A program made the translations under genes and the position numbers. A stretch of 64,000 nt of DNA from Octopus vulgaris (taxonomy: Eukaryota): the NCBI GenBank assembly GCA_951406725.2, contig OX597814.1, positions 35,836,001-35,900,000 of the forward strand, given 5' to 3'. Shown piece after piece: positions 2,708 through 59,436 of the stretch (the first letter of the stretch is position 1; every line of letters starts with the position of its first letter). The notes beneath the pieces were generated by a model that searched no databases, had not been told where the DNA came from, and worked only from the letters and a program-made list of their open reading frames with translations.

Positions 2708-3228
2708 TTTGGGTTGTCTGATTTTTAAAGGAAAGGAAAAGGTCAATAAATACTTGCCATTATATTTTTAATCAACCAAATATGAACCATTTTGTTGCAC
2801 AATACATCTCCATCTTTCCTTTAACTTGAAAATACTCTCTTCCCAGAATTGAGGTGGTTTCATGGCAAAAACTTCATCAAGGTATCTTTTTATATCATCC
2901 AAGGAATTGAAATTTTTACCATTAAGACTATTCTGCAGAGATCTGAATAAGTAAAAATCCGAAGGAGCAATATCTGGTGAATATGGAGAGTGGGATAACA
3001 CATCCCAGCTGAGCTGCAGAGATTTTTGTTTGGTTCCCAAAGCATCAAGAGCTGAAAATGAACTTTCTTATCTTCCATTTTAAAGGGTTACACAGGTTAT
3101 AGGAACATAAACCTTCTTCCACGAAAAGATAGCTTAAACTGTGCTCTAAAAGGAGTTGTAGTCAAATTTCTAAAATAAGTCAAAAGATAAGCTACTATAA
3201 ATCGGCACGAACTTTCCAGACAACCCAA
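2708..3228 (-). mobile_element. Internally deleted mariner (Tc1/mariner) DNA transposon
   Basis: Ends TA|TTTGGGTTGTCTG and CAGACAACCCAA|TA (inverted termini, TA flanks). Minus strand joins the transposase start MEDKKVHF directly to the C-terminus HSPYSPDIAPSDFYLFRSLQNSL...WRCIVQQNGSY (YSPDLAPSD motif). Confidence 0.9.
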
Positions 3229-4631: not shown

Positions 4632-5534
4632 TACAAGTGAGAATCAAAAATTATGTAATTTTGTTTTTTCAGTATATTTACACAAAAGGAGATAAAAAGT
4701 ATGCTATTTTTCTGTATAGTTTCCCATCTTTTCTGTGCACTTGGTCCAGTGGTCCACAAGCTTGCATATTCCCTCCAAGAAGAAGGTTTTTGTTTGGTTG
4801 TGCAACCAATTATGCACACTTCATTCACTTCTTCATCCATAGGAAAGCAACGACCTCGTAAACCATCTTTGATGGTTTGATGGTGAAATCTGGGCTGTAG
4901 GCAAGGTGTTTCAGCATCTCAAAACTCAATTGGTAAATGGCTTTAATGGTGTGAGCATTCATTGTGATGCAACAACAAAACATTCTTTGATAACAGGCTT
5001 CAGAATTTGTTGCGAATTGCTGGCTTCAGTTTGTTGGCCAGCAAAGCTCTGTTTCTTCAGTGTTGATTGTACACACCTTTTACAGCCAGTCTTACAGCAT
5101 GAGCCCTTTTGAGTCCCAAAATGGGTTAGTATCACCTTTCCCATGGAAGACTGAGTTTTGAATTTTTCCGTCGCTGGTGAGCCAGGACATTTCCACTCCA
5201 TACTCTGTCTTTTGGATTCTGCCTCATAATGATGGACCCACGTTTCATCTTCTGTGACTATCCTGCTCAAATATTCCTCACCCTCATTATTGTAATGACT
5301 GAATAAACATTGGCAGACCTCAAGACGTTTGTGCTTGTGCTCTGCAGTAAACTCTCTTGGCACCCATCTTGCACAGACTTTATGGCCACTGTAAAGCCAG
5401 AAAGAAAAATGGTATGATCAGGTTCAAAATTTGATCATGTGACCACAATAGCACTAACTATAAGCATGCATGTGCAGAAGGCAGTATGACAATAATAAAG
5501 ATATGTTATGGCAAAAGTGTGGATAACTTTCCTC

Positions 5535-5567: not shown

Positions 5568-6280
5568 CATCATCATCATTTAACATCCGTTTTCCGTGCT
5601 AGCACGGGTTGGATGGTTTGACCGGGGTCTGGGAAGCCAGGAGGCTGTGACAGGCTCCAGTCTGATCTGGCAGTGTTTATACAGCCGGATGCCCTGCCTA
5701 ATGCCAACCACTCCAAGAGTGTAGTGGGTGCTTTTCACGTGCTACCGGCACAATTCCATTTGATTTTTATTTCGATGTTGGTGTTGACGTACTTGACTCA
5801 ATAGGTCTCCTCAAGCACAGCAGGTCGCCCTATGAACCAAGGTTAGCCCAGCAGGTCATCCTGCGAGCCATGAACTTACTTCATTTGTCGGGTCTTCGAA
5901 GCCACAGCATATCTCCAGAGGTCTTGGTCTTTCATCATAGCCTCTGTGAGGCCCAATGTACGAAGGTCATTCTTGATCATCTCATCCCATGACTTCCTGA
6001 GTCTACCTCTACCCCAGATTCCTTCAATAGTTTGGGAGTGGCACTTCTTCACACATCTCTCCTCATCCATCCGTAGTACATGACCATACCAACACAAACG
6101 TCTCTCCTGCATGCCACATCCGATGCTTCTTATGTCCAACATTTCTCTCAAGGTGCTTACACTCTGTTGTGCATGGTCACCGACATTACACATCCAGCGG
6201 ATCATGCTAGTTTCATTTCTTTCTAGCCTATGCATGTCCTCCACAGTCACAGACCATGTTTCACTGCCGTGAAGCATGGC
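5566..6280 (-). mobile_element. 5'-truncated RTE/BovB-type LINE (RT C-terminus, 3'UTR, (TGA)n tail)
   Basis: ORF 5876-6277 MLHGSETW...MIRWMCNV...RRLCWYGHVLRM...GRGRLRKSW is the RTE C-terminal region; followed by the 3'UTR shared with many short copies and a TTAAATGATGATG tail. Confidence 0.9.
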
Positions 6281-6998
6281 AGTTCACACACATGTGAACT
6301 GCCATGTATATATACCAGGAGAATGGAGATTTACACATCCATAATTTATTATACAGTTATTATCAGCATTCTTCCCTTGGATTACTATACTTTCACACAA
6401 TTTACAGCAACCGAATTCATCTACAAGGCAGTAGTCAACCTGGGGCTATATTAGATGACACTCACTGAAAGTGCTGTGGATTAGAGGCAAATCCAAAGCC
6501 ATAATGTTTGGCAGAAAACAAAATTGTATAGAGAATAAATTACTCTCATATATTTCCTGTTAGCCTTTTGACACCACTCGCATTAACCATGTTAACTGCA
6601 GTTAATTAATGGTTTTACATTCAGTTAACGTCATTGTGTAATAAACTCTCAACGGCTGAATTCATCTTTCTCTAAATATTTTGTGGTTTATTTGTTTAAG
6701 GACTGCTCTGATTGAACAAACTAATGATCAAAGATATTTTATTCATGACCATCCCTTCATATATTCAAGCACAGTGAAACACAAGGCTTCCATGTAATTA
6801 AGTGTAAGGTAAACTATAAACTTTGCAGAAGTTCAACTTCTCTTCTTACATATAGTACAAACTGTACAATTCAGATATGACAAAATTAATTTCTAACATG
6901 AGAACTGTGCCACAAATTGTGGGAGAATGTACATCGAATTAAATCAGCCTTAGTACTTAACTGGTATTGTATTTTAACCACCCTGTCTGGATGAAAGG

Positions 6999-12499: not shown

Positions 12500-14320
12500 A
12501 TCTACATTCTGCCTCGCTCTGTTCCCCTTATCTACAGACTGAATAATGCTAAGAGAGGGTATAAGATCTTTGACTAGAAAATTAACCATCTACTCTATAT
12601 GGATGATCTAAAAGTGTTTGCCAAAACCGACAAAGAATTAGAAGAGCTCTTGAATATTGTCAAAGAATTCAGCTCTGATATAGGTATGGGATTCATTTTT
12701 TATATAAATTTGCAAAGGCTACTTTCAAGGCAGGGAAGTTCATAAAGGAAGAAACCATAGAACTTGATACTACCACAGCTATTCGAAACCTAGACCAATC
12801 TGGAATTCATTGAAGGTGATGGTATCCAGCACTCTAAAATGAAAGAGAAAACCTGCAAGGAATTCTACCAAAAGGTAAGAATGATCCTAAACTCAGAATT
12901 AAATGCTGCTAACAGAATTAATGTGATCAATTCTTTGGCCATACCAGTAACCACATATAACTTTGGTGTCATTAAGTGGAGTCTCACTGACATGCAGAAT
13001 TTGGATGGAAAGATCTGCAAAATCTTTACAAGGTGCTGAATACATCATCCAAAATCAGATGTAGACAGGATTTATCTCCCAAGAAAAATAAGTGGAAGAG
13101 GCCTAATACAGCTCGAACAATCCTTCAAATCAGCAATAATAGTCCTTGAAGCATACCTTAATGCAACAAGTGATATGCTTTTACGAACTGCACTGAAGCA
13201 TGAAGATTCCAAGCAAGCTTCAGTAATGAAGCTGAGTCAGAAATTTTAAAAGCTTCTTGGCCTACAAGTTAATAAAAAAGACCAAAGACACCCAAATACT
13301 GACAGACCATTGCTTCTCCTGATTTATAAACTAAAAATTAGAAAGACGAAAGGTATCCAAATAGTGACAAACTTATAATTGATGCAAAAAACATTTTAAA
13401 AAATGCAAAGAAGGCTTGCATGAATAATATCGAAGACAACTGGAAAGGTAAGCTCCTGCATGGAAAATACCCTAACTGTCTGTCAAAGCCAGATATTGAT
13501 AAAAATCTAACATATCAATGGCTACAAGGGATAGGTCTGAAAGGGGAAACAGAAGGTTTTGTCATTGCAGTGCAAGATCAGAGCTTACCTACCAGAATCT
13601 ACCCTACAAACGTCCTTAAAGATGGATCTGACCCCTCATGCAGAATTTGCAGAAAATTCGCTGCCCAGTCCTTGCTGAAAGGGAGTACCTCGTAAGACAT
13701 GACAGACTAGGGCAGTACATCCACTGGAATGCTTGTAAATACTACAAAATTAAATCCCATGTTAAGTGGTACAGGCACCATCAAGAGGATGTAGTAAATG
13801 GTGAGAGCATCACCATCTTTGGAACTTTCAAATACAAACAGACAGAAAAATTGACTCCAGTCGACCAGACATTGTGATCAAAGACTACAACAGAGGAACT
13901 TGTCTGTTAATAGATAGGTATTTCCCACAAGACTAAAATGTCGCAAGAAAGGAATATGAAAAGCTTTCTCACTATAAAGATCTGTAAATTGAAATCACAA
14001 AAACATGGAAGCTTAGTACTACGATCATACCAGTATTAATTGGTGCATTGGGAATGATAAAGAAGGGAGCTGAAAAGTATATTAAGCAACTCCCATGTAT
14101 CTCCAGTCTCCGTAAACTACAAAAGATAACCTTTGTGGATACAACCCACATACTACTGAAAGCACTCTCCTTCTAAAATGGAATAAATGTGGTGATAACT
14201 TTAGCATGCATAGCAAAACATAAGTGCCCTTGCTACTCTTGGCCTCTGGAGGATGCCTGGACCTAAGGCAGATGAAATAAAGTTATAATGAAAGGAACCC
14301 ATAATTGATAATAATAATAA
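12500..14320 (+). mobile_element. 5'-truncated R4/Dong-type non-LTR retrotransposon (RT + REL endonuclease), pseudogenised
   Basis: INHLLYMDDLKVFAK near 12580, LKGETEGFVIAVQDQSL, CRIC, RHDRLGQYIHWNAC, PDIVIKD; ends in (TAA)n at 14300-14320; multiple stops and frameshifts. Confidence 0.9.
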
Positions 14321-14321
14321 C

Positions 14322-17300
14322 ACTAAATACTATTAGAAGAAGAAAGTGGATGAAAGAATTGGAGGAAGAAATCACAAAAGAACTGGAAAAGAAAGACCAG
14401 GCATTGGGAAAGACAAACAGCAATATAAGAGATAAGGATCAAAGAAGAACCTAAAGGTAAAAATAATAATAGCACTACCAATAAGGAAGGGAAAACTGGC
14501 ACCAATAACTTAAATGATTTAAGTGACAAAGATCAGAAGATTTTAGTTGAGTTTCAGGAAGTAATGATTAAAGAAGTAAGAAAAAGATTGCCAGCATTAA
14601 AAGGCACCAACAGAAGGAAGCTGCTAGAAATGACTAGGAAAGTAAATTCGGTTATCAGTAGGATAGATACTAAAAATATAGAAGACACTAACTTATTGAA
14701 CTATGCAGGAGGGGTAGTAGTCACCAGAATATTAGATGTCTCACAGGGAAAGATTAAAAACGAGCAAATGTGTAAAAGGAGACTACAAAATAAACTGAAG
14801 ACTTTAAGACAAGATCTGTGTAGAATAGAAGCATGGAAACCAAACAAGTTAGGAAACACAAGATGCAAATCTTCCCTCGGGAAAAGATACTTAATGAAAG
14901 AGAAAGGATTTAGGACAGTAAAAGAAGAGTTGAAACAGCATATCATAGCAGTAGCAGGCAAGCTCTCCAGATATCAGTAAATAATACATCACTATCAACA
15001 GAATAGATTATTTGAGACAGACCTGATGAGATTTTATAACAAAATAAATAGTGGAGAACGAAGTACTGAAAATGAGAAACCTAATGCATAAGAAGCTAGA
15101 AAGTTCTGGAGTAATATTTGGGATAAGCCAGTCAATCATAATGGAGATGTAATAGAGTTAAACAAAGTGAGGGAAGAAGTAGCGAATGAGAAGTAGCCAG
15201 ATCTAAGATTAACTAGAGCATTAATGAGTAAAGTGTTTGGAAAAAGGCCGAATTAGAAGAGCCCAGGATCAGATTTAGTTCAAGGATACTGGCAAAAGAA
15301 ATTCAGTAGTTTACGTGGGAAGCTGGGGAAACAACTTCAGGATTGCCTCAATGGAGAAATGATATCAGATTGGATGACTAGAGGGAGGTCAATACTCATT
15401 ATGAAAGATAAGAGCAAGGGTAATACAGCTAGCAGCTAAAAACCAATCACTTGCTTACCATTAGTGTGGAAGCTGTTAATAGGAATACTTTCAGAAAGCA
15501 TTTACGTGCACCTTGACAACCAGAATTTACTATCAGAAGAACAGAAAGGTTGCAGGAAGAAGGCTAGAGGAATGCATGATCTACTATATATAGACGAAGC
15601 AATTCTAAATTAAGTAAAAGCTAGAAAGAAAAATCTAACAGTAGCATGGATAGATTATAGGAAAGCCTATGACATGACCCCATACTCATGGATAAGGGAA
15701 TGTTTGAGTATATTACTGCAGACAACATAAAAAAATTTATTAGCTGTAGCATGAAGAAATGGAAAGCAGATCTCTACTCAGGTGACTCACTGTTAGGGAA
15801 AGTTAATATCAAAAGAGGAATTTTCCAGGAGGACTCGTTGTTCACTTTTATATTTGTCTTATGTTTGATACCCCTCAGTTTAGCATTAAGGAAGGAAAAA
15901 GCAGGGTATCAGTTCAGAAATAGTAATGGAAAAATTAACCATTTGCTCTACATGGATCATCTGAAGCTCTTTAGTAAGAATGAAAAAGAGATAAATTCCT
16001 TAACACAGACTGTAAGACTTTTCAGCATAGACAGGCATAAAATTTGGCATAGATATGTGTGCAATATTAGCCATGAGAAGGGGACAGGTAGTCAACAGTG
16101 AAGGCATCCAATTACTAGATGGCTAGACATTAAAATCATTGAAAGGAGGAGGGAGAGAGTTATAAGCATCTGGGAGTATTAGAATCTGACAGAAAAGAAA
16201 ACTACAGAAAGAAAAACAAAAATTGAGGAGTACGTTAGAAGAGTAAGGAAGCTAATGAAGTCAAAGCTAAATGGTCTGAATCTAGTGAAGGCTGTAAATA
16301 CTTGGGTAATATCATTACTTAGATACTCTGCAGCTTTTGTAGATTGGACAAAGCTGAATTAGCAAAGCTAAACAGAAGAACTAGGAAGGAATTCAATATG
16401 AAAAGAGGACTCCACTCAAGGGCAGGAGTAGCAAGATTGTACCTGCCTTGTGAGGAAGGCAGAAGAGGGTTAATATCAGTAGAAGACTGTGTGGAGTTAG
16501 CTAGAGCAGATATAGACTCCTATGTAGGTAATTGTGAAGAAAGTTTATTAAAGTCACAGAAAGATATAAGGAAACCCAATAAAACCCAAACGAAATTAAA
16601 CACCAGAAAAAAGAACAGAAATTATCTGATTGGCAGGAGAAAGCATTGCATGGTAGATTCCCAAAGATAGTTGCAGTAAATAGTAGTAGGGAGACATGGT
16701 TATGGCTGCAGAAAGGAAAGCTGAAAAGGGAGACAGAAAGTTTGTTAGTTGCTGCACAATATAGAACACTAAGGTTTTATTGGATAAAAGCGAAGATAGA
16801 CAGAAACCAAATAGATTCCCAATGTAGATTATGCAAATCAACAGAGAAAAGCATTACTTATATAATAAGTGAATGTAGCATGCTGGCACAGAAAAAAATA
16901 CAAGATAAGACATGACAATCTAGGGAGAGTAATCCACTGGAAGCTTTGTAGAAAGCTAGGATTTGAACATACTAATAAATGGTATGAACACGAACATAGT
17001 AAAGTACTAGAAAGTAAGAAATACAAGATGTGGGACTTTAACATTCAGACTGACTGAGTAATACAAGCTAGAAGTCCTGGTTTGGTAGTAGTAGATAGAG
17101 AATAGAAAGTATCAGATAACTGACTTTACAATTACTAATGACAAAAAAAAAATTAGTATGAGAAGTATAGAAAATTAGCAAAGAACTAGGATCTTGTTAT
17201 TGAATTACAGAGACTATAGAAAGTGTGGGTAAAATGTAACCCAGTAGTTACAGGTGCATTGGGAACTATCCCTAAAGATCTGAACAGATGGATAAAGGAA

Positions 17301-27510: not shown

Positions 27511-28382
27511 GTGACTATTCTGTGGTACAGAAGTATTTTTTACTTCTATTTTAAGCGATGTAGGTGCTCATTTGGTGCCTTCACACACACATATATATAT
27601 ATATATTTCTTGTGCTGACCTAGCAGAGTTAAGACATTTTTAATGTTCACTGGAATTTTTTCCTACCATGCCTATAGTAGATTTGTGAATATTCTGTGGT
27701 ACAGAAGAATTTTTGACCTCTATTTTAAGCGATGTAAGTGCTTGAAACAATTGTAATGCATCACTAACTGATATCCTGTTGCTTAATTTGATTATATATT
27801 ATATATAAGTACATATCTTGCATTGTATGTATATATTTTATTAATTTGCTTGTATGGCTGTTAACTCACTTGCCACCGGTGATGGCATTTCAATAATACC
27901 ATCTCTTCTTATATTTATTTACAAATAATTTCATGAATTTTGTTTGTTTAAATAGTGTTTGGTCACTTTAAACAAAACTTTTGTAAGTATGGTGGGGGAA
28001 AATATTAGCAGTAGTAAGTTGGCAGACTTTGGCTGAAGAAAAAAAGGAACCTATTTGGTGCTAATTTTGAAATCAGTTCCAAGTTGACCGGTATTGGTTG
28101 TGCTGACCTAGCAGAGGTAACACGTTTTTAATGTTCACTGGAATTTTTTCCTACCATGTCTGTAGTAGATTTGTGACTATCCTATGTTACAGAAGTATTT
28201 TTGACTTCTATTTTAAGTGATGCAGGTGCTCATGTGGTGCCTTCCTGTATGTATATATATATATATATATATACAAGTACGTCTTGTATGTATATATTTT
28301 ATTAATATCAATAATTTGCCTGTACAGCTGAACTTGCTTGCCACACGTGATGGTATTTTAATAATACCATCCCTTCTTATAT
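27511..28382. repeat. Local segmental duplication (about 490-bp offset) with rearranged pieces
   Basis: TGTGCTGACCTAGCAGAG...TATTTTAAGCGATG at 27611 and 28099, with a third partial at 27511; TTGCCAC...ATAATACCATC at about 27870 and 28340. Confidence 0.85.
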
Positions 28383-47445: not shown

Positions 47446-48110
47446 TATTGCATTGATCAAAAACTCCATCCAGTTCTTGTCAACACTAAGATTTAAATAC
47501 TTTAATAAGAAGCTAACTTTAGTCTGTCTTTTGTGCATGCACACTCGTAGCTTACTTGACACTTCAATGTAGTTCGCTGTAAACTTGCAGCAAGACAGGT
47601 TGTATTTTATGTGCTTATGATCACCCTGAAAATGGAAAGCCAAATGAACCTTATCAACTTCACGTTCATATTTTTAAAAAAGACAAGAAAGTGGTGGAAA
47701 CCTGCAAGAAGAAATGCATCTAGTACAGAGAGGATGCTGTGACAGAAAATCAATTATGAAGTTTTCTAATTCAAGTTCACCTTGCTCTGACCGGCCAACT
47801 GAGACTAATAGCAACACCAACCTTCATTATAAGATCAAGATAGTCGCAGAAATTCCTCAGATATCCAAATTGAGTACTGGAAACCATCTGCATCAACTCA
47901 TTTATGTCAACAAGCTCAATGTTAGGGTCCCACATCAGTTGAATAAAGCGAACATTACCCAACAGATTTCCATCTGCAATTCATTACAGACATATGAAGA
48001 AAACATTTCGTTTTTGAAAAGAATAGTGACAGAGGATGAAAAATGGATCATCTATAACAATGTTTAGCACAAGTAATCATGAGGGAAGTGCAGCAAAATA
48101 CTACAAACAG
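47446..48110 (+). mobile_element. Decayed mariner transposon, 5' part
   Basis: NVRVPHQL...ISICNSL...FLKRIVTEDEKWIIYNNV (WVPHEL and TGDEKW motifs). Confidence 0.85.
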
Positions 48111-53189: not shown

Positions 53190-53652
53190 TCAGTATATGT
53201 ATGTACATTCAAACACCCACACACACACACAGACGCACACATGTGCGAATGGTGATCTAGTTCAAAGAGTATATCGAAAAGTTCTTTTGTAGTTGCAAGG
53301 TTCCGTGGTACTGTACATATTAGAGAAAACAAAATTACAGTACTTTGTCGATGGAGTAGATTCTCTCAGTTTGTGACAATGCAATTTTATGATCCACAAT
53401 GCTTATATTGAAGCAGTTTTAAAAGTTTGTGAAATGAATTAGGATACTACTGAGAGACAGGAATTATTTTTGACTAAAAATGTATTACAAAGAGAAGAAT
53501 GATGTAAAAATTTGTCCATATAAGGACACTTATACATAGAAACATACACATATACAAACACTAATGTACAAACACACACTCATATATATACCAACATACA
53601 GAGACAGGCAAGCCCTAACAAACACACACGTATATGTATGTATGTATGTATG

Positions 53653-53719
<67 letters not shown>

Positions 53720-53720
<1 letters not shown>

Positions 53721-54258
53721 AGGATAAGATCGTTCATTTAAATTAAATAATGATCTTATCAAGTGGCCAGCATGGAAATAAAAACCTTCAAAGGTAATAA
53801 TTATTATCAAAATTATAACTTAGGGTATCTACAAGATACCGCCATGCTGAAAATAGCAGCCAGGATCTGACTCTAAAACCGCCTTAAGTGTTCATATAGC
53901 ACAAGGAGAGAAGACAAAAAGACAAAATAAAACTAGTAAAAAATTACTGGATAATTCCAGATCCTGGATTTCTGACTTTGCATTTAGAAATGCTTTGCCT
54001 CATCAATGGAATATATGCAGAGAGAAACATAAATACATATATATATATATATATACATATAACATACGAATACTTACATATACGAACGCATACATACATA
54101 TATATGCATGTATGCATCATGACCAGTTTAAAATGTCTGCTTCTTAATTCCATGTGTGATCTAATTAAAACATCACCGCAGTAAATACAATGACGAAATA
54201 AATTTAAATTTATATAATTAAGGATAAGATCGTTAATTTAGATTAAATAACGATCTAT
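53720..54258 (-). mobile_element. Hammerhead-bearing mini-element with about 40-bp terminal direct repeats, in (TA)n
   Basis: AAGGATAAGATCGTT.ATTTA.ATTAAATAA.GATCT at 53720 and 54220; hammerhead motif at 53954-54012 (minus). Confidence 0.7.
53954..54012 (-). ncRNA. Type I minimal hammerhead ribozyme motif (C3-to-U variant)
   Basis: Minus: auucca-UUGAUGA-ggc aaa gcauuu cu aaaugc aaa guca-GAAA-ucc a gg-AUC-uggaau. Perfect 6-bp stem I (extendable), stem II hairpin, palindromic stem III. Confidence 0.7.
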
Positions 54259-54262
54259 ATAT

Positions 54263-54472
54263 TCTTTTATACTCTTTTACTTGTTTCAGTCATTTGACTG
54301 CGGCCATGCTGGAGCACCGCCTTTAGTCGAGCAAATCGACCCTTGGACTTATTCTTTGGAAGCATAGTACTTATTCTATCGGTCTCTTTTGCCGAACCGC
54401 TAAGTGACGGGGATGTAAACACACCAGCATCGGTTGTCAAGCAATGCTAGGGAGACAAACACAGACACACAA

Positions 54473-54507
<35 letters not shown>

Positions 54508-54671
54508 CACATATACGATAGGCTTATTTCAGTTTCTGTCTACCAAATCCACTCACAAGGCATTGGTCGGCCCGGGGCTATAGTAGAAGACACTTGCCCA
54601 AGATGCCACGCAGTGGGACTGAACCATGTGGTTGGTTAGCAAGCTACTTACCACACAGCCACTCCTGCGCC
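54263..54671 (-). mobile_element. SINE family A
   Basis: Full-length young copy with a small deletion near the B box. Confidence 0.9.
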
Positions 54672-54862
54672 ATATATATACATATATGAGTAAAAAGGCC
54701 AAATGGTTAAAATTTTAACTATAAAACATAAATAAATTATTTAGAAGTTGAATGTAGGACAGAACAAAGGCAACAAATTTATAGGCTAAGGACATAGTGA
54801 GAATATGTTCTTTCTTCCTTGTACTTGAACTTACTTAATATACATTCATGCATGCCTACATA

Positions 54863-55023
54863 GGTGCAGGAGTGTATGTGTTGTAAGTAGCTTGCTTATC
54901 AACCACATGGTTCCAGGTTCAGTCCCACTGCAAGGCACCTTGGGCAAGTGTCTTCTACTATAGCCTCGGGCTGACCAAAGCCTTGTGAGTGAATTTGGTA
55001 GAGAGAAATTGAAAAAAGCCCAT

Positions 55024-55058
<35 letters not shown>

Positions 55059-55285
55059 ATGTGTGTGTATGCTTGTGTGTCTGTGTTTGTCCCCCCGACA
55101 TTGCTTGACAACTGATGTTGGCGTGTTTATCTACCTGTAACTTAGCAGTTCAGCAAAAGAGGCCAATAGAATAAGTACTAGGCTTACAACGAATAAGTCC
55201 TGGGTTGATTTGTTGAAATTCAGGCAGTGCTCTAGCATGGTCGCAGTCAAATGACTGAAACAAGCAAAGAGTATAAGAAAAAAGA
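54863..55285 (+). mobile_element. SINE family A (plus orientation)
   Basis: GGTGCAGGAGTG...GGTTCAGTCCCACTG...CAAATGACTGAAACAAG. Confidence 0.88.
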
Positions 55286-55320
55286 ATACATACATACAAA
55301 CATACATACTTTCATACATA

Positions 55321-55961: not shown

Positions 55962-57009
55962 CATACATACATACATACATACATACATACATACATACAT
56001 ACATACATACATACAGTTCCATGCACATATTAAAGTCTGTATGTATGCTATTCCAGGTTATAAAATTGTGCATAGAATAATTGGTCAAATACCAAGTTAG
56101 CTGGACTTTCACATTATATTTATCATTTTACATTTTTGAATGGTGCTTTTATTCTCTACAATGAGCTTCAGGTGAATGTTCAAATAGCAACTGTATATAT
56201 GAACATGTTTAGATTGCTACACAGCAACAGTAGCTATACGTAGATAAATATTTACATAGCAACATTACCTACAATTTGTGGTAGTGTTGTATAGTTAAAG
56301 AGAGAGAATACTTACAAGCTGTACAAAAGTTTTTAATGAATATTATTTTGAAATCAAATTAAATTCATGTCAATATGACCGTCCACTCAAAACTGCTTTG
56401 AAATTCCTAATATAGTTGTTTACTTTTGCTCTTTTGTTAAATTCATTTGAATCATAAAGTTTATAAATTGAAAATATATAAGAATCGTGGCATATTTCCA
56501 ATTGATAGGGTCTTTAATTTGCTGCCATTTTATTCGTATTTGTTATGGCAATGAATTTCCAGTCTGGCCAATATATATTTTTTAGCAATTTGGGCTTTTG
56601 ACAGAATAAATCAGATTTCTTTAACTGTTCATATTTGCATTCAAAAATAGTTTTCTTCCCATCTTTGTGTTGACATAATGACCACCATGTATAATTAGCA
56701 TGTATTACAATGAAAAACACATCATTGACTCAAAGTGGAATAACAATTTTATTGATAATTTCGAGCAAATCCTGAATGGAGAGTAATGTTAATTTGAATT
56801 GAAAGATATTACAAAGACATTCTCATGAAAACTGATTTAATATTGTAAGTGTTATCTCTAACTATATAACAAAGCCATCTGGTTATACTTACTGTTGCTA
56901 GATAAACAATTACCTGAAGATTTTTGGAAAACATGGAAGTACTTGTGAAAATACGAGAATAAAAGTTTCATCTGAATATTCAGCCTAGCTGGATTTTGAT
57001 TGGCTAATA

Positions 57010-57284
57010 TATATATATATATTTGTATGTTCCTCTCACCACCATCTAACGGTGAATAGATACAATGTCTTAGATGCGTACATGCAAATATAAGCCTACC
57101 TATACATATATAATAGCACACACACGGTCATATAAACACACATACACACCCATATATACGTATAAGCTTAAAGTATACACATATATACGTTTATCCATCT
57201 ACACATATATGTCTCTATTTTCACAGACAATGGTTAAACTCTGATACTTTTTTGTATTTTACATAGACATACATATACATGTGA

Positions 57285-57337
<53 letters not shown>

Positions 57338-58672
57338 GTACATATATATATATATACACACATACTTATACGTGCATGCATATACACACTCATACATACA
57401 CACACATACTCACACACACACACATATACACACATACACATGCACATTAAAATCCACCTCCATCTACACATACATACATGCATACATACATACATACATA
57501 TTAATCTATGTACATTCATACGACTATATATAATTACATATACATTTGTATGTATGGATTTCTACATGTAAATGAAGGAATGGGATAATTATAGATGGGT
57601 CCTCCTGACTGGAATCTGTGTGTTACCCCATTCGGATTCACGGTTGTGGGTGGGTTTGTATTCCTGTATACAGACAGCCTCAGTAACTTGTCTCAGTATT
57701 GCCTCAGTGGCATGTGCAGATAGGATGCCTAACCTAAGTCTCCCTAAGGAGCTATTGTGGCAGTCTACAGCATGCTGATATAAGACGGAGTTTGGTTTAT
57801 TTTCCGTGTAGTTGTCCAAGTGTTCTTTGAACCTGACATTGATGCTCCTAGGTGTCTTACCAATATGGGACTGCAGGAGAACTGTGCTAGTCATTTCCTG
57901 GCACTTAATCTGGTATACGGCATTTTGCTTTTTGCAGTTCATATGTAGCTTTTGTAGAACATACTACACAATTATTCTGACACAGGATTTTATCAAATGG
58001 GTAAGACTTACTTAATACAGATTTGATAGTCTTACTTGTTGTTTCTACAACTTTGATTTTAGGGCCAGTTGTGTGCAGGATTTTCTTAAATGCCCTAGTT
58101 AGTTTGTTCATAGGTTTAGTGTCAACAAACAGTGCACTGTGAAACTTCTTGTTATCTTATCAGGTATTATTTCTATTTCTTTTGTTGGTGATCTTCTCCA
58201 ACCTATTCCAGAACTTCCTGTGGTATAGGAGGCATATACCATTTTCATCATCTCTTAGAATGCGTTCACGTCTTGCTTTCGTTACTTTGTACAGTTTGAT
58301 TCTATTGTACTATGTGTAACTGGAACGTTGCATTCAGAATATGTAGTGCTGGATGTGTTGTTGTCATTCTTGTGGTTGGCATAGTGGGGATACATTCCTC
58401 ATTACTCTTAGTCTGCCACGAGGATTTTGATTTTGGTAGTACTTGACATCGCTGAGTGAATACGGATTACCAGTGGATTACATATATGTAATTATATATA
58501 GTCATATGCATGTACATAGATTAATATGTATGTACATATGTGTAGATGTATGTGTATTTTAGCTTGCATGTGTATGTGTGTATGAAAGTGTATGTGTTTG
58601 TGTGAGTATGTGTGTGTTTGTATGAGTGTGTATATGCCTGTATGTAGGGGTATATATGTATACATATATATG

Positions 58673-58744
<72 letters not shown>

Positions 58745-58995
58745 TATGTAAAACAAAAAACAGTATTTGAGTTTAACCATTGTCTGTGAAAATAGAGACA
58801 TATATATGTGTAGATGGATAAACGTATACTTGTGTATACTTTAAGATTATACATCTATATGTGTGTGTGTATATGTGTTTATATGATCGTGTGTGCTTGT
58901 ACATACGTATAGGTAGGTTTATATTTGCATGTATGTATCTAAGACATTGTGTCTATTCACTGTTAGATGGTGGTGAGAGGAACATATATATATAT
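57010..58995 (-). mobile_element. 5'-truncated Penelope-like element (Naiad-like) with about 500-bp inverted flanks
   Basis: Minus 58475-57575: HSAMS.TTKIKIL..LRVMRNVSPL...DDENGICLLY...SALFV...KIKVVE...KSYPF..C...C..C..NC.KQNAVYQIKC...HIGKTPRS...RFKEH...LRQVTEAVCI..EWGN (RT thumb plus GIY-YIG). 57010-57560 is mirrored by 58475-58995. Confidence 0.85.
57589..57942 (-). pseudogene. GIY-YIG endonuclease domain of the Penelope-like element
   Basis: AVY...HIG.T.R...R..EH...E...I...N catalytic pattern; frameshifted from upstream ORF 57905-58111. Confidence 0.85.
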
Positions 58996-59436
58996 ATACA
59001 ATATTTGACAGAGTAACAGTCACATATACAACTTGAACAGACACACATATCAGTACATAAATATAAATTTACATGTACATACACATATACACACATGCTG
59101 ACACATCTACACACTTACATACCTAAACCTACACATATATATGTACATACATAAACACATATATATCATGAACTAACTGTTAGTTTCTTAGATGCAGCAC
59201 AAAGTTTTGTCAGTGAACAGGTTGTGGTTTCAAAGCAATGAAAATATTTTGACTCTTATTAAATTTAAATGTTGAAGTGAATCTAATGGTTTTTTTGTGT
59301 GTTCTTAAATGGCTTATAACCATCTTCCACATTGCAATCGTGTGTGTATGTGTATATATATATATATATACATAAAATTACATAAAATTACATAAAATTA
59401 CATATATATACATAAAATATATATATACATAAAATT

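Follow-up and report, generated by a model that had tools for sequence, protein, structure and literature searches.

Penelope-like elements (PLEs) of metazoans carry type I hammerhead ribozymes in their pseudo-LTRs (pLTRs); these have a long helix II and a palindromic helix III, are mostly dispersed as single motifs and are weakly active as dimers (Cervera and De la Pena 2014, PMC4209133). In PAc, a Poseidon element of the green anole, initiation is internal, in a stem-loop downstream of the hammerhead, two start sites bound the tail, and insertion in vitro proceeds without cleavage (Frangieh et al. 2024, PMC11167929). PLEs form partial tandems, bear optional tails of 30-40 bp, target microsatellites and give rise to non-autonomous derivatives (Craig et al. 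2021, PMC8557442). The animal non-LTR retrozymes are non-coding, low in GC and equipped with a type I hammerhead; solo monomers are known and a PLE origin has been proposed (PMC7229834; 10.64898/2026.07.22.740005).

The element described here lies in a 64-kb stretch of Octopus vulgaris DNA (the window, in whose positions all coordinates are given) and shares features with each of these systems. Like the pLTR hammerheads of PMC4209133, its motif is of type I with a long helix II and a palindromic helix III and is found in many dispersed single copies of high variability; unlike them, it has a 6-bp stem I, a helix II split by a 3x3 A loop and no linked ORF that we could find, and its extra nucleotide sits on the 3' side before G12, whereas theirs lies between 9 and 10.1. 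As in PAc, a hammerhead stands upstream of a stem-loop that ends copies, with AT-rich targets and possibly an optional tail. The PAc ORF, however, begins inside the hammerhead and initiation occurs 111-118 nt in (PMC11167929), whereas the present element has a non-coding body, its main end ~280 nt from stem II and a graded extension of ~50 nt. MRC1 of Chlamydomonas, a non-autonomous PLE derivative, is likewise short, with pLTR-like partial tandems, and belongs with microsatellite-favouring PLE clades, but the Chlamys elements mostly lack hammerheads (PMC8557442). The retrozymes share the non-coding, low-GC character and the hammerhead type, and our ~500-bp unit falls within 51-972 bp, the span of lengths in Li et al. 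2026 (10.64898/2026.07.22.740005), but is longer than the 150-450 bp given by Cervera and de la Pena 2020 (PMC7229834); unlike in retrozymes, no second hammerhead or array is seen here, and most copies look like a shorter core with fixed ends. We consider it likely that the stretch is a mutated copy of an abundant non-coding family derived from a Penelope-like pLTR, present here as a partial tandem, mobilised in trans and carrying a hammerhead that is probably dead.

Layout of the locus and its hammerhead motif

The features are as follows (start to end, strand, description).

53631 to 53720, unstranded: (TATG)n(TATC)n(TA)n microsatellite flanking the element on the left, probably the site targeted for insertion
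53719 to 53760, minus: terminal palindromic hairpin (arms 53723-53760) with 38-nt repeat copy 1 (53719-53756); family members usually have their 3' end here, read on the hammerhead strand
53761 to 53953, minus: non-coding structured body (predicted fold, stops in three frames), with the highest summed depth of the family
53767-53774 with 53842-53849, minus: stem within the body, with short hairpins inside it (such as 53824-53840) and followed by a pyrimidine-rich tract
53860 to 53869, minus: 10-nt exact antisense match to 53958-53967 (stem III and cleavage site), likely copy-specific
53947 to 53960, minus: 5-bp hairpin that rivals hammerhead stem I and sequesters the cleavage site in minimum free energy (MFE) folds
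53954 to 54012, minus: type I hammerhead motif (descriptor scan, folding)
54016 to 54118, unstranded: degenerate TA/TACA-rich spacer, which either belongs to the ~500-bp unit or is a former target microsatellite
54119 to 54218, minus: segment U, which in a minority of copies extends the sequence past the hairpin like a tail, on the hammerhead strand (three joints, depth gradient)
54171 to 54195, minus: second hairpin, inside segment U (predicted fold)
54219 to 54256, minus: hairpin copy 2, cut within its outer arm and interpreted as the upstream member of a partial tandem, truncated at its 5' end

An earlier note, made from this sequence, had described a unit of about 500 bp between hairpin-forming direct repeats of about 40 bp, and these repeats are real. 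They (53719-53756 and 54219-54256) are 38 nt each, 92.1% identical (3 of 38 positions differ) and spaced 500 bp apart. Both fold better than their shuffles, on the plus strand with z = -5.55 for copy 1 (0/200 shuffles as good) and -3.24 for copy 2 (1/200), and on the minus strand with z = -5.11 and -2.90; in the right copy the outer 4 nt are missing from one hairpin arm. The whole unit folds with z = -6.49, of which microsatellite pairing accounts for part. The element has a GC content of 0.30-0.32, and its minus-strand body is non-coding, with stops in all three frames. It is flanked by the microsatellite tract on the left and by the TA end of a SINE-like repeat on the right, and the window holds no further copy apart from the hairpin duplicate and microsatellite matches.

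On the minus strand, stem I pairs 54012-54007 with 53959-53954, the core occupies 54006-54000 with U at position 3, and stem II spans 53999-53974; on the 3' side there follow an extra A (53973), GAAA (53972-53969) and the near-palindromic stem III, and cleavage is predicted between 53960 and 53959. Three sites in the window fit a loose type I descriptor, of which the minus-strand site 54006-53960 alone has a stem I of at least 6 bp and a stem III of at least 4, a combination that appeared in 0/20 block-shuffled windows. A separate scan of the window for palindromic stem III motifs returned one site, this hammerhead. Two weak core look-alikes, at 28033-28093 (plus) and 28794-28730 (minus), have a 4-bp stem I and lie within the range of the shuffles. 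Rfam gave no match at gathering scores; none of the 31 matches up to E = 10 is a hammerhead, and most come from miRNA models driven by microsatellites.

The details of the motif largely agree with the earlier note, which had placed a hammerhead with a C3-to-U change on this strand. G12, A13 and A14, the A15.1-U16.1 pair, H17 and stems I and III are all in place. This copy departs from the core C3 U4 G5 A6 N7 G8 A9 by U3, with G8 unchanged, as the note had it; U3-A8 is the covariant form of the core (PMC3088659), and it is not the one present here. The near-palindromic AUCC-A-GGAU stem III is as described. The 12 bp claimed for stem I are reached solely as 6+3+3, interrupted by a bulge and an internal loop. 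The GCAUUU/AAAUGC of stem II is present but closes a 2-nt loop, so that 5 bp pair, and this distal part stands on a 3-bp base helix by way of the 3x3 A loop. What the note had overlooked is that an extra A (53973) separates C11.1 from G12, so that the 10.1-11.1 pair is not adjacent to G12.

The hammerhead of this copy is probably inactive, with U3 facing G8. The harm of the C3-to-U change is inferred from the pairing of C3 with G8. In PAc, either C3G or G8C causes the hammerhead to lose cleavage (Frangieh et al. 2024, PMC11167929); the covered hammerhead literature contained no tests of C3U itself. The MFE fold, in which the hairpin 53947-53960 takes the 3' strand of stem I, is 2.9 kcal/mol more stable than the hammerhead fold, and folding z-scores of the region are 0.33 and -0.14. 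Stem III forms no hairpin in the monomer, and its self-duplex is predicted at -7.6 to -9.9 kcal/mol across the family variants.

The window is AT-rich and contains many microsatellites, SINE-like repeats and broken retroelement and transposase frames; a Pfam search with 12 ORFs from it matched no family. An abundant SINE-like repeat next to the element (copies 54260-54689 and 54846-55298, in opposite orientation, arms ~85% complementary) recurs about a dozen times, and we take the SINE-like repeats of the window to be octopus-type. By eye, and negative with Pfam, broken frames resemble a non-LTR retrotransposon ORF at 13342-16915 (plus) and 5876-6283 (minus) and a mariner-type transposase at 2768-3067 (minus), 4959-5417 (minus) and 47678-48067 (plus). 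A separate PLE-like remnant lies at 57006-59005. Its frame, on the minus strand, is broken and has a GIY-YIG-like domain (57589-58300) at its end; inverted repeats of ~540 bp (57006-57542 and 58483-59005, 83.7% alike) with TA-rich tracts inside flank it. The homologue that matches it best (39% identity, E = 4e-16) has a Pfam GIY-YIG domain, and scanning the repeats of the remnant revealed no hammerhead.

The family in sequencing runs

Parts of the stretch occur in 20 of 24 listed sequencing runs with four species labels. For a survey of the family, the stretch was aligned at 80% identity or more to the assembled contigs of four runs (X1, X3, X8 and X12; three species labels). Matching contigs numbered 3016, 2905, 1252 and 321, most of them 90-99% identical, so that the element noted earlier proves to be a multi-copy, hammerhead-bearing family, abundant in 4/4 runs. 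On a rough scale that is not a copy number, summed depth at 53881 amounts to ~1350 (X1), 2350 (X3) and 650 (X8) times the median of the listed long records, and in distal U to about 27, 44 and 20 times; summed depth of contigs is a poor measure. A metagenome scan with a 19-base motif gave 15 loci, none extending past 24 bases, which we take as chance.

Summed depth is high from 53712 to ~54015 and at the second copy of the terminal hairpin, and low in U (54119-54205); in the spacer 54019-54118, which was masked as repeat in the contig alignment, it is near zero, and because of this masking the ~500-bp unit is visible at this locus only. Relative to the hairpin, U depth in the four runs falls to 6-14% at 54204 (15 bases past the hairpin), 3-11% at 54178, 1.5-3.8% at 54164 and 1-2% at 54130-54148 (~80 bases past). 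A second step near 54164-54178, just beyond the second hairpin, is seen in X3 and X8 (10-11% to 2-3%) and is weak in X1 (3.1 to 1.5%) and X12 (6.4 to 3.8%). In loose contig ends, (TA)n or (GT)n immediately precedes the hairpin. The usual family copy is thus a ~297-bp core, composed of hammerhead, structured body and one terminal hairpin with a microsatellite flank; the core end opposite the hairpin is less sure, as contigs break there and the sequence just beyond is masked.

Given the drop in depth just past the hairpin in 4/4 runs, the family ends look mostly fixed. The circularly permuted start points for which the earlier note had proposed to look find no support in the runs; the ends cluster at the hairpin in all four. 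Neither are terminal direct repeats, as at this locus, the norm of the family, whose bulk has one hairpin. One of the two origins that the note had offered for the layout, a PLE partial tandem, fits. Fixed ends with terminal inverted repeats (TIRs) would have indicated a DNA MITE; although the ends look mostly fixed, TIRs are absent, the best inverted match between core ends being 4-5 nt, and an 8-nt inverted match between unit ends stems from the symmetry of the hairpin itself. The MITE reading was dropped for this reason, and inspection of the sequence found no Helitron-type ends.

One contig each in three runs joins U to the hairpin and runs on into the body (54203 to 53764 in X1, 54216 to 53737 in X3, 54197 to 53743 in X8). 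In other copies, therefore, U follows the hairpin on the hammerhead strand, while here it also precedes the hammerhead. This order fits a head-to-tail unit and a PLE tail equally and is no proof of a circle. In X12, one of six listed runs with a small to modest share that we merely guess to be RNA, variant shares mirror those of the DNA runs and there is no excess over U (2.2% versus 1.0-2.0% elsewhere). Within U, 5 of the 9 variants listed for 54119-54237 are silent in one minus-strand frame, against 1 and 2 in the others, with few variants to count; two of these five also keep or improve the hairpin 54171-54195. A protein search with this frame returned 25 low-identity matches, and the four examined are multi-CxxC proteins with generic CxxC similarity. 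The frame could be the start of an autonomous ORF or mere structure.

The terminal hairpin covaries strongly and marks the main 3' end. A G-C pair is regained through the change T>C at 53751 (94-97% of depth); to the A>T at 53750 (74-84%) corresponds an A on the opposite arm in loose ends; and 53755 C>A finds its partner change in one X8 record. In the hammerhead, the near-palindromic stem III noted for this copy is kept in the family: only its centre base 53965 varies (to C, 71-82%), and the predicted self-duplex is maintained. The basal G-U pair of stem II becomes G-C through 53975 A>G (26-32%). In stem I, one pair is lost through 53958 C>T (12-20%), barring an unseen compensating change. 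With the family-majority letters the hammerhead fold lies 4.6 kcal/mol above the MFE. The 10-nt antisense match (53860-53869) was considered as a conserved switch and dropped because the majority letters, T at 53863 (78-88%) and the C at 53965, shorten it.

The earlier note had also asked for CUGAUGA in the family consensus, and C3 does appear in the loose-end consensus of other copies. Behind 53983 it is clear in X1 (33 contigs, agreement 0.70) and X12 (6 contigs, 0.94) and blurred by two registers in X3 (33 contigs) and X8 (19); one loose-end consensus seems to have a further base behind A9, which was rejected as likely a register artefact. Position 54006 is absent among the 40 substitution rows listed, a listing that leaves out 16 more, and the A>G tallies of X1, X3 and X8 are fully taken up by listed rows. 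No deletion of the extra A at 53973 occurs among the family variants listed; judged from these sequences, this A is likely family-wide and may belong to a fixed non-canonical core.

A probable pseudo-LTR derivative and competing readings

How might such a family spread? Its abundance, the extent of its core, the covarying hairpin, the microsatellite flanks, the absence of TIRs and C3 in other copies are observed; for the remaining steps we infer from known PLEs that a PLE reverse transcriptase/GIY-YIG protein would mobilise the family in trans. Copying would be target-primed: this protein would nick the (TA)n tract and initiate reverse transcription internally, just 3' of the terminal hairpin of the RNA or, less frequently, after the second hairpin ~50 nt further on, which would yield the optional tail. 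Reverse transcription would usually halt close to the TA-rich tract that lies on the upstream side of the hammerhead; in the present copy it would have passed through the whole internally deleted unit of ~500 nt and 38 nt of the preceding one, leaving the short direct repeats. By analogy with known PLE motifs, the hammerhead would cut as a dimer via its palindromic stem III, and the extra A before G12 may weaken it across the family. The PLE-type traits found here are a hammerhead-type motif with a palindromic helix III in a terminal non-coding repeat, the partial-tandem layout, a microsatellite or AT-rich target and the lack of TIRs. Against this reading, the ~50-nt extension exceeds the classic tail, the extra A is not the PLE-type bulge between 9 and 10.1, and Rfam finds no match. 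The GIY-YIG remnant 3.3 kb away indicates that PLEs occur in this genome, although it shares no sequence with the element, and no autonomous PLE with this pLTR is present in the window.

Part of the evidence can be read as a true non-LTR retrozyme, in which a tandem-array transcript is cut by paired hammerheads, a ~500-nt circle forms and rolling reverse transcription leaves a monomer plus 38 nt. U precedes the hammerhead at this locus and comes after the hairpin in three other contigs, as in a head-to-tail unit; the unit is well folded (in part through microsatellite pairing), 30% GC and without a coding frame, and a pLTR origin of retrozymes has been proposed (Li et al. 2026, 10.64898/2026.07.22.740005). 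The same authors, however, demand two consecutive hammerhead units, and this locus has one, a count that covers the 64-kb window, tandem arrays elsewhere being beyond the resolution of short contigs. With distal U at 1-2% of hairpin depth, a 500-nt unit is at best a small subfamily, and the ends cluster at the hairpin; the three joints give the order of U, hairpin and body only, which a tail explains equally, and the guessed RNA run holds no excess over U. We hold a retrozyme to be unlikely. Similarly unlikely, in our estimate, is a hybrid of the two readings: a small active subfamily existing as a circular mini-PLE RNA of ~500 nt, dimer-cutting despite the extra A, its covarying hairpin setting the start of reverse transcription, that seeded about a thousand or more solo cores in (TA)n. 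In the hammerhead and PLE literature covered, a core with an extra A between C11.1 and G12 has no counterpart.

We give little credence to two independent insertions of the family in one microsatellite, a 297-bp core and, 100 bp upstream, a 3' fragment of hairpin and ~100-nt tail, with no 500-bp unit at all. The spacer is indeed microsatellite-like, as is the preferred flank of the family, both pieces match family end types, and the hairpins differ at 3 of 38 positions. Two events on the same strand within ~100 bp would be needed, however, in a family with no other copy in 64 kb, and partial tandems are commonly formed by PLEs (PMC8557442). Moreover, the neighbouring PLE-like remnant holds TA-rich tracts inside its terminal repeats, so that such tracts can belong to an element. 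A LINE-dependent SINE-like or DNA element with an accidental or long vestigial hammerhead likeness is improbable: it would suit the lack of an Rfam match, the non-canonical extra A and a hammerhead fold 2.9-4.6 kcal/mol above the MFE, and a 3' hairpin with a microsatellite is also compatible with LINE-type ends, but the full core with 6-bp stem I and palindromic stem III arose in 0/20 shuffles, family variants spare or improve stems II and III, the exception among the hammerhead variants being 53958 C>T (12-20%) in stem I, and TIRs are absent.

Significance

As it stands the locus is ordinary, since hammerhead-bearing PLE end-pieces are common in animal genomes, and the family is likely a further case of this already described sequence type. 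PLE expansions with 31 recently active Penelope-like families are reported for Octopus vulgaris (PMC13282606), and 235 hammerhead matches for the giant squid (PMC6962438). The literature covered on hammerheads in octopus or cephalopods, on Penelope and on retrozymes, with journals incompletely represented, holds no account of this family, and the covered part of PMC7229834 mentions neither octopus nor cephalopod; the family may already be annotated in repeat databases. The covarying hairpin at the main 3' end offers a natural opportunity to test whether PLE reverse transcriptases initiate internally. If a circular mini-PLE subfamily were real, it would unite retrozyme circles, PLE tails and microsatellite targeting. 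If the motif with the extra A cuts, it would be a new tolerated variant of the hammerhead core; if it does not, the family would support PLE-type spread without cleavage.
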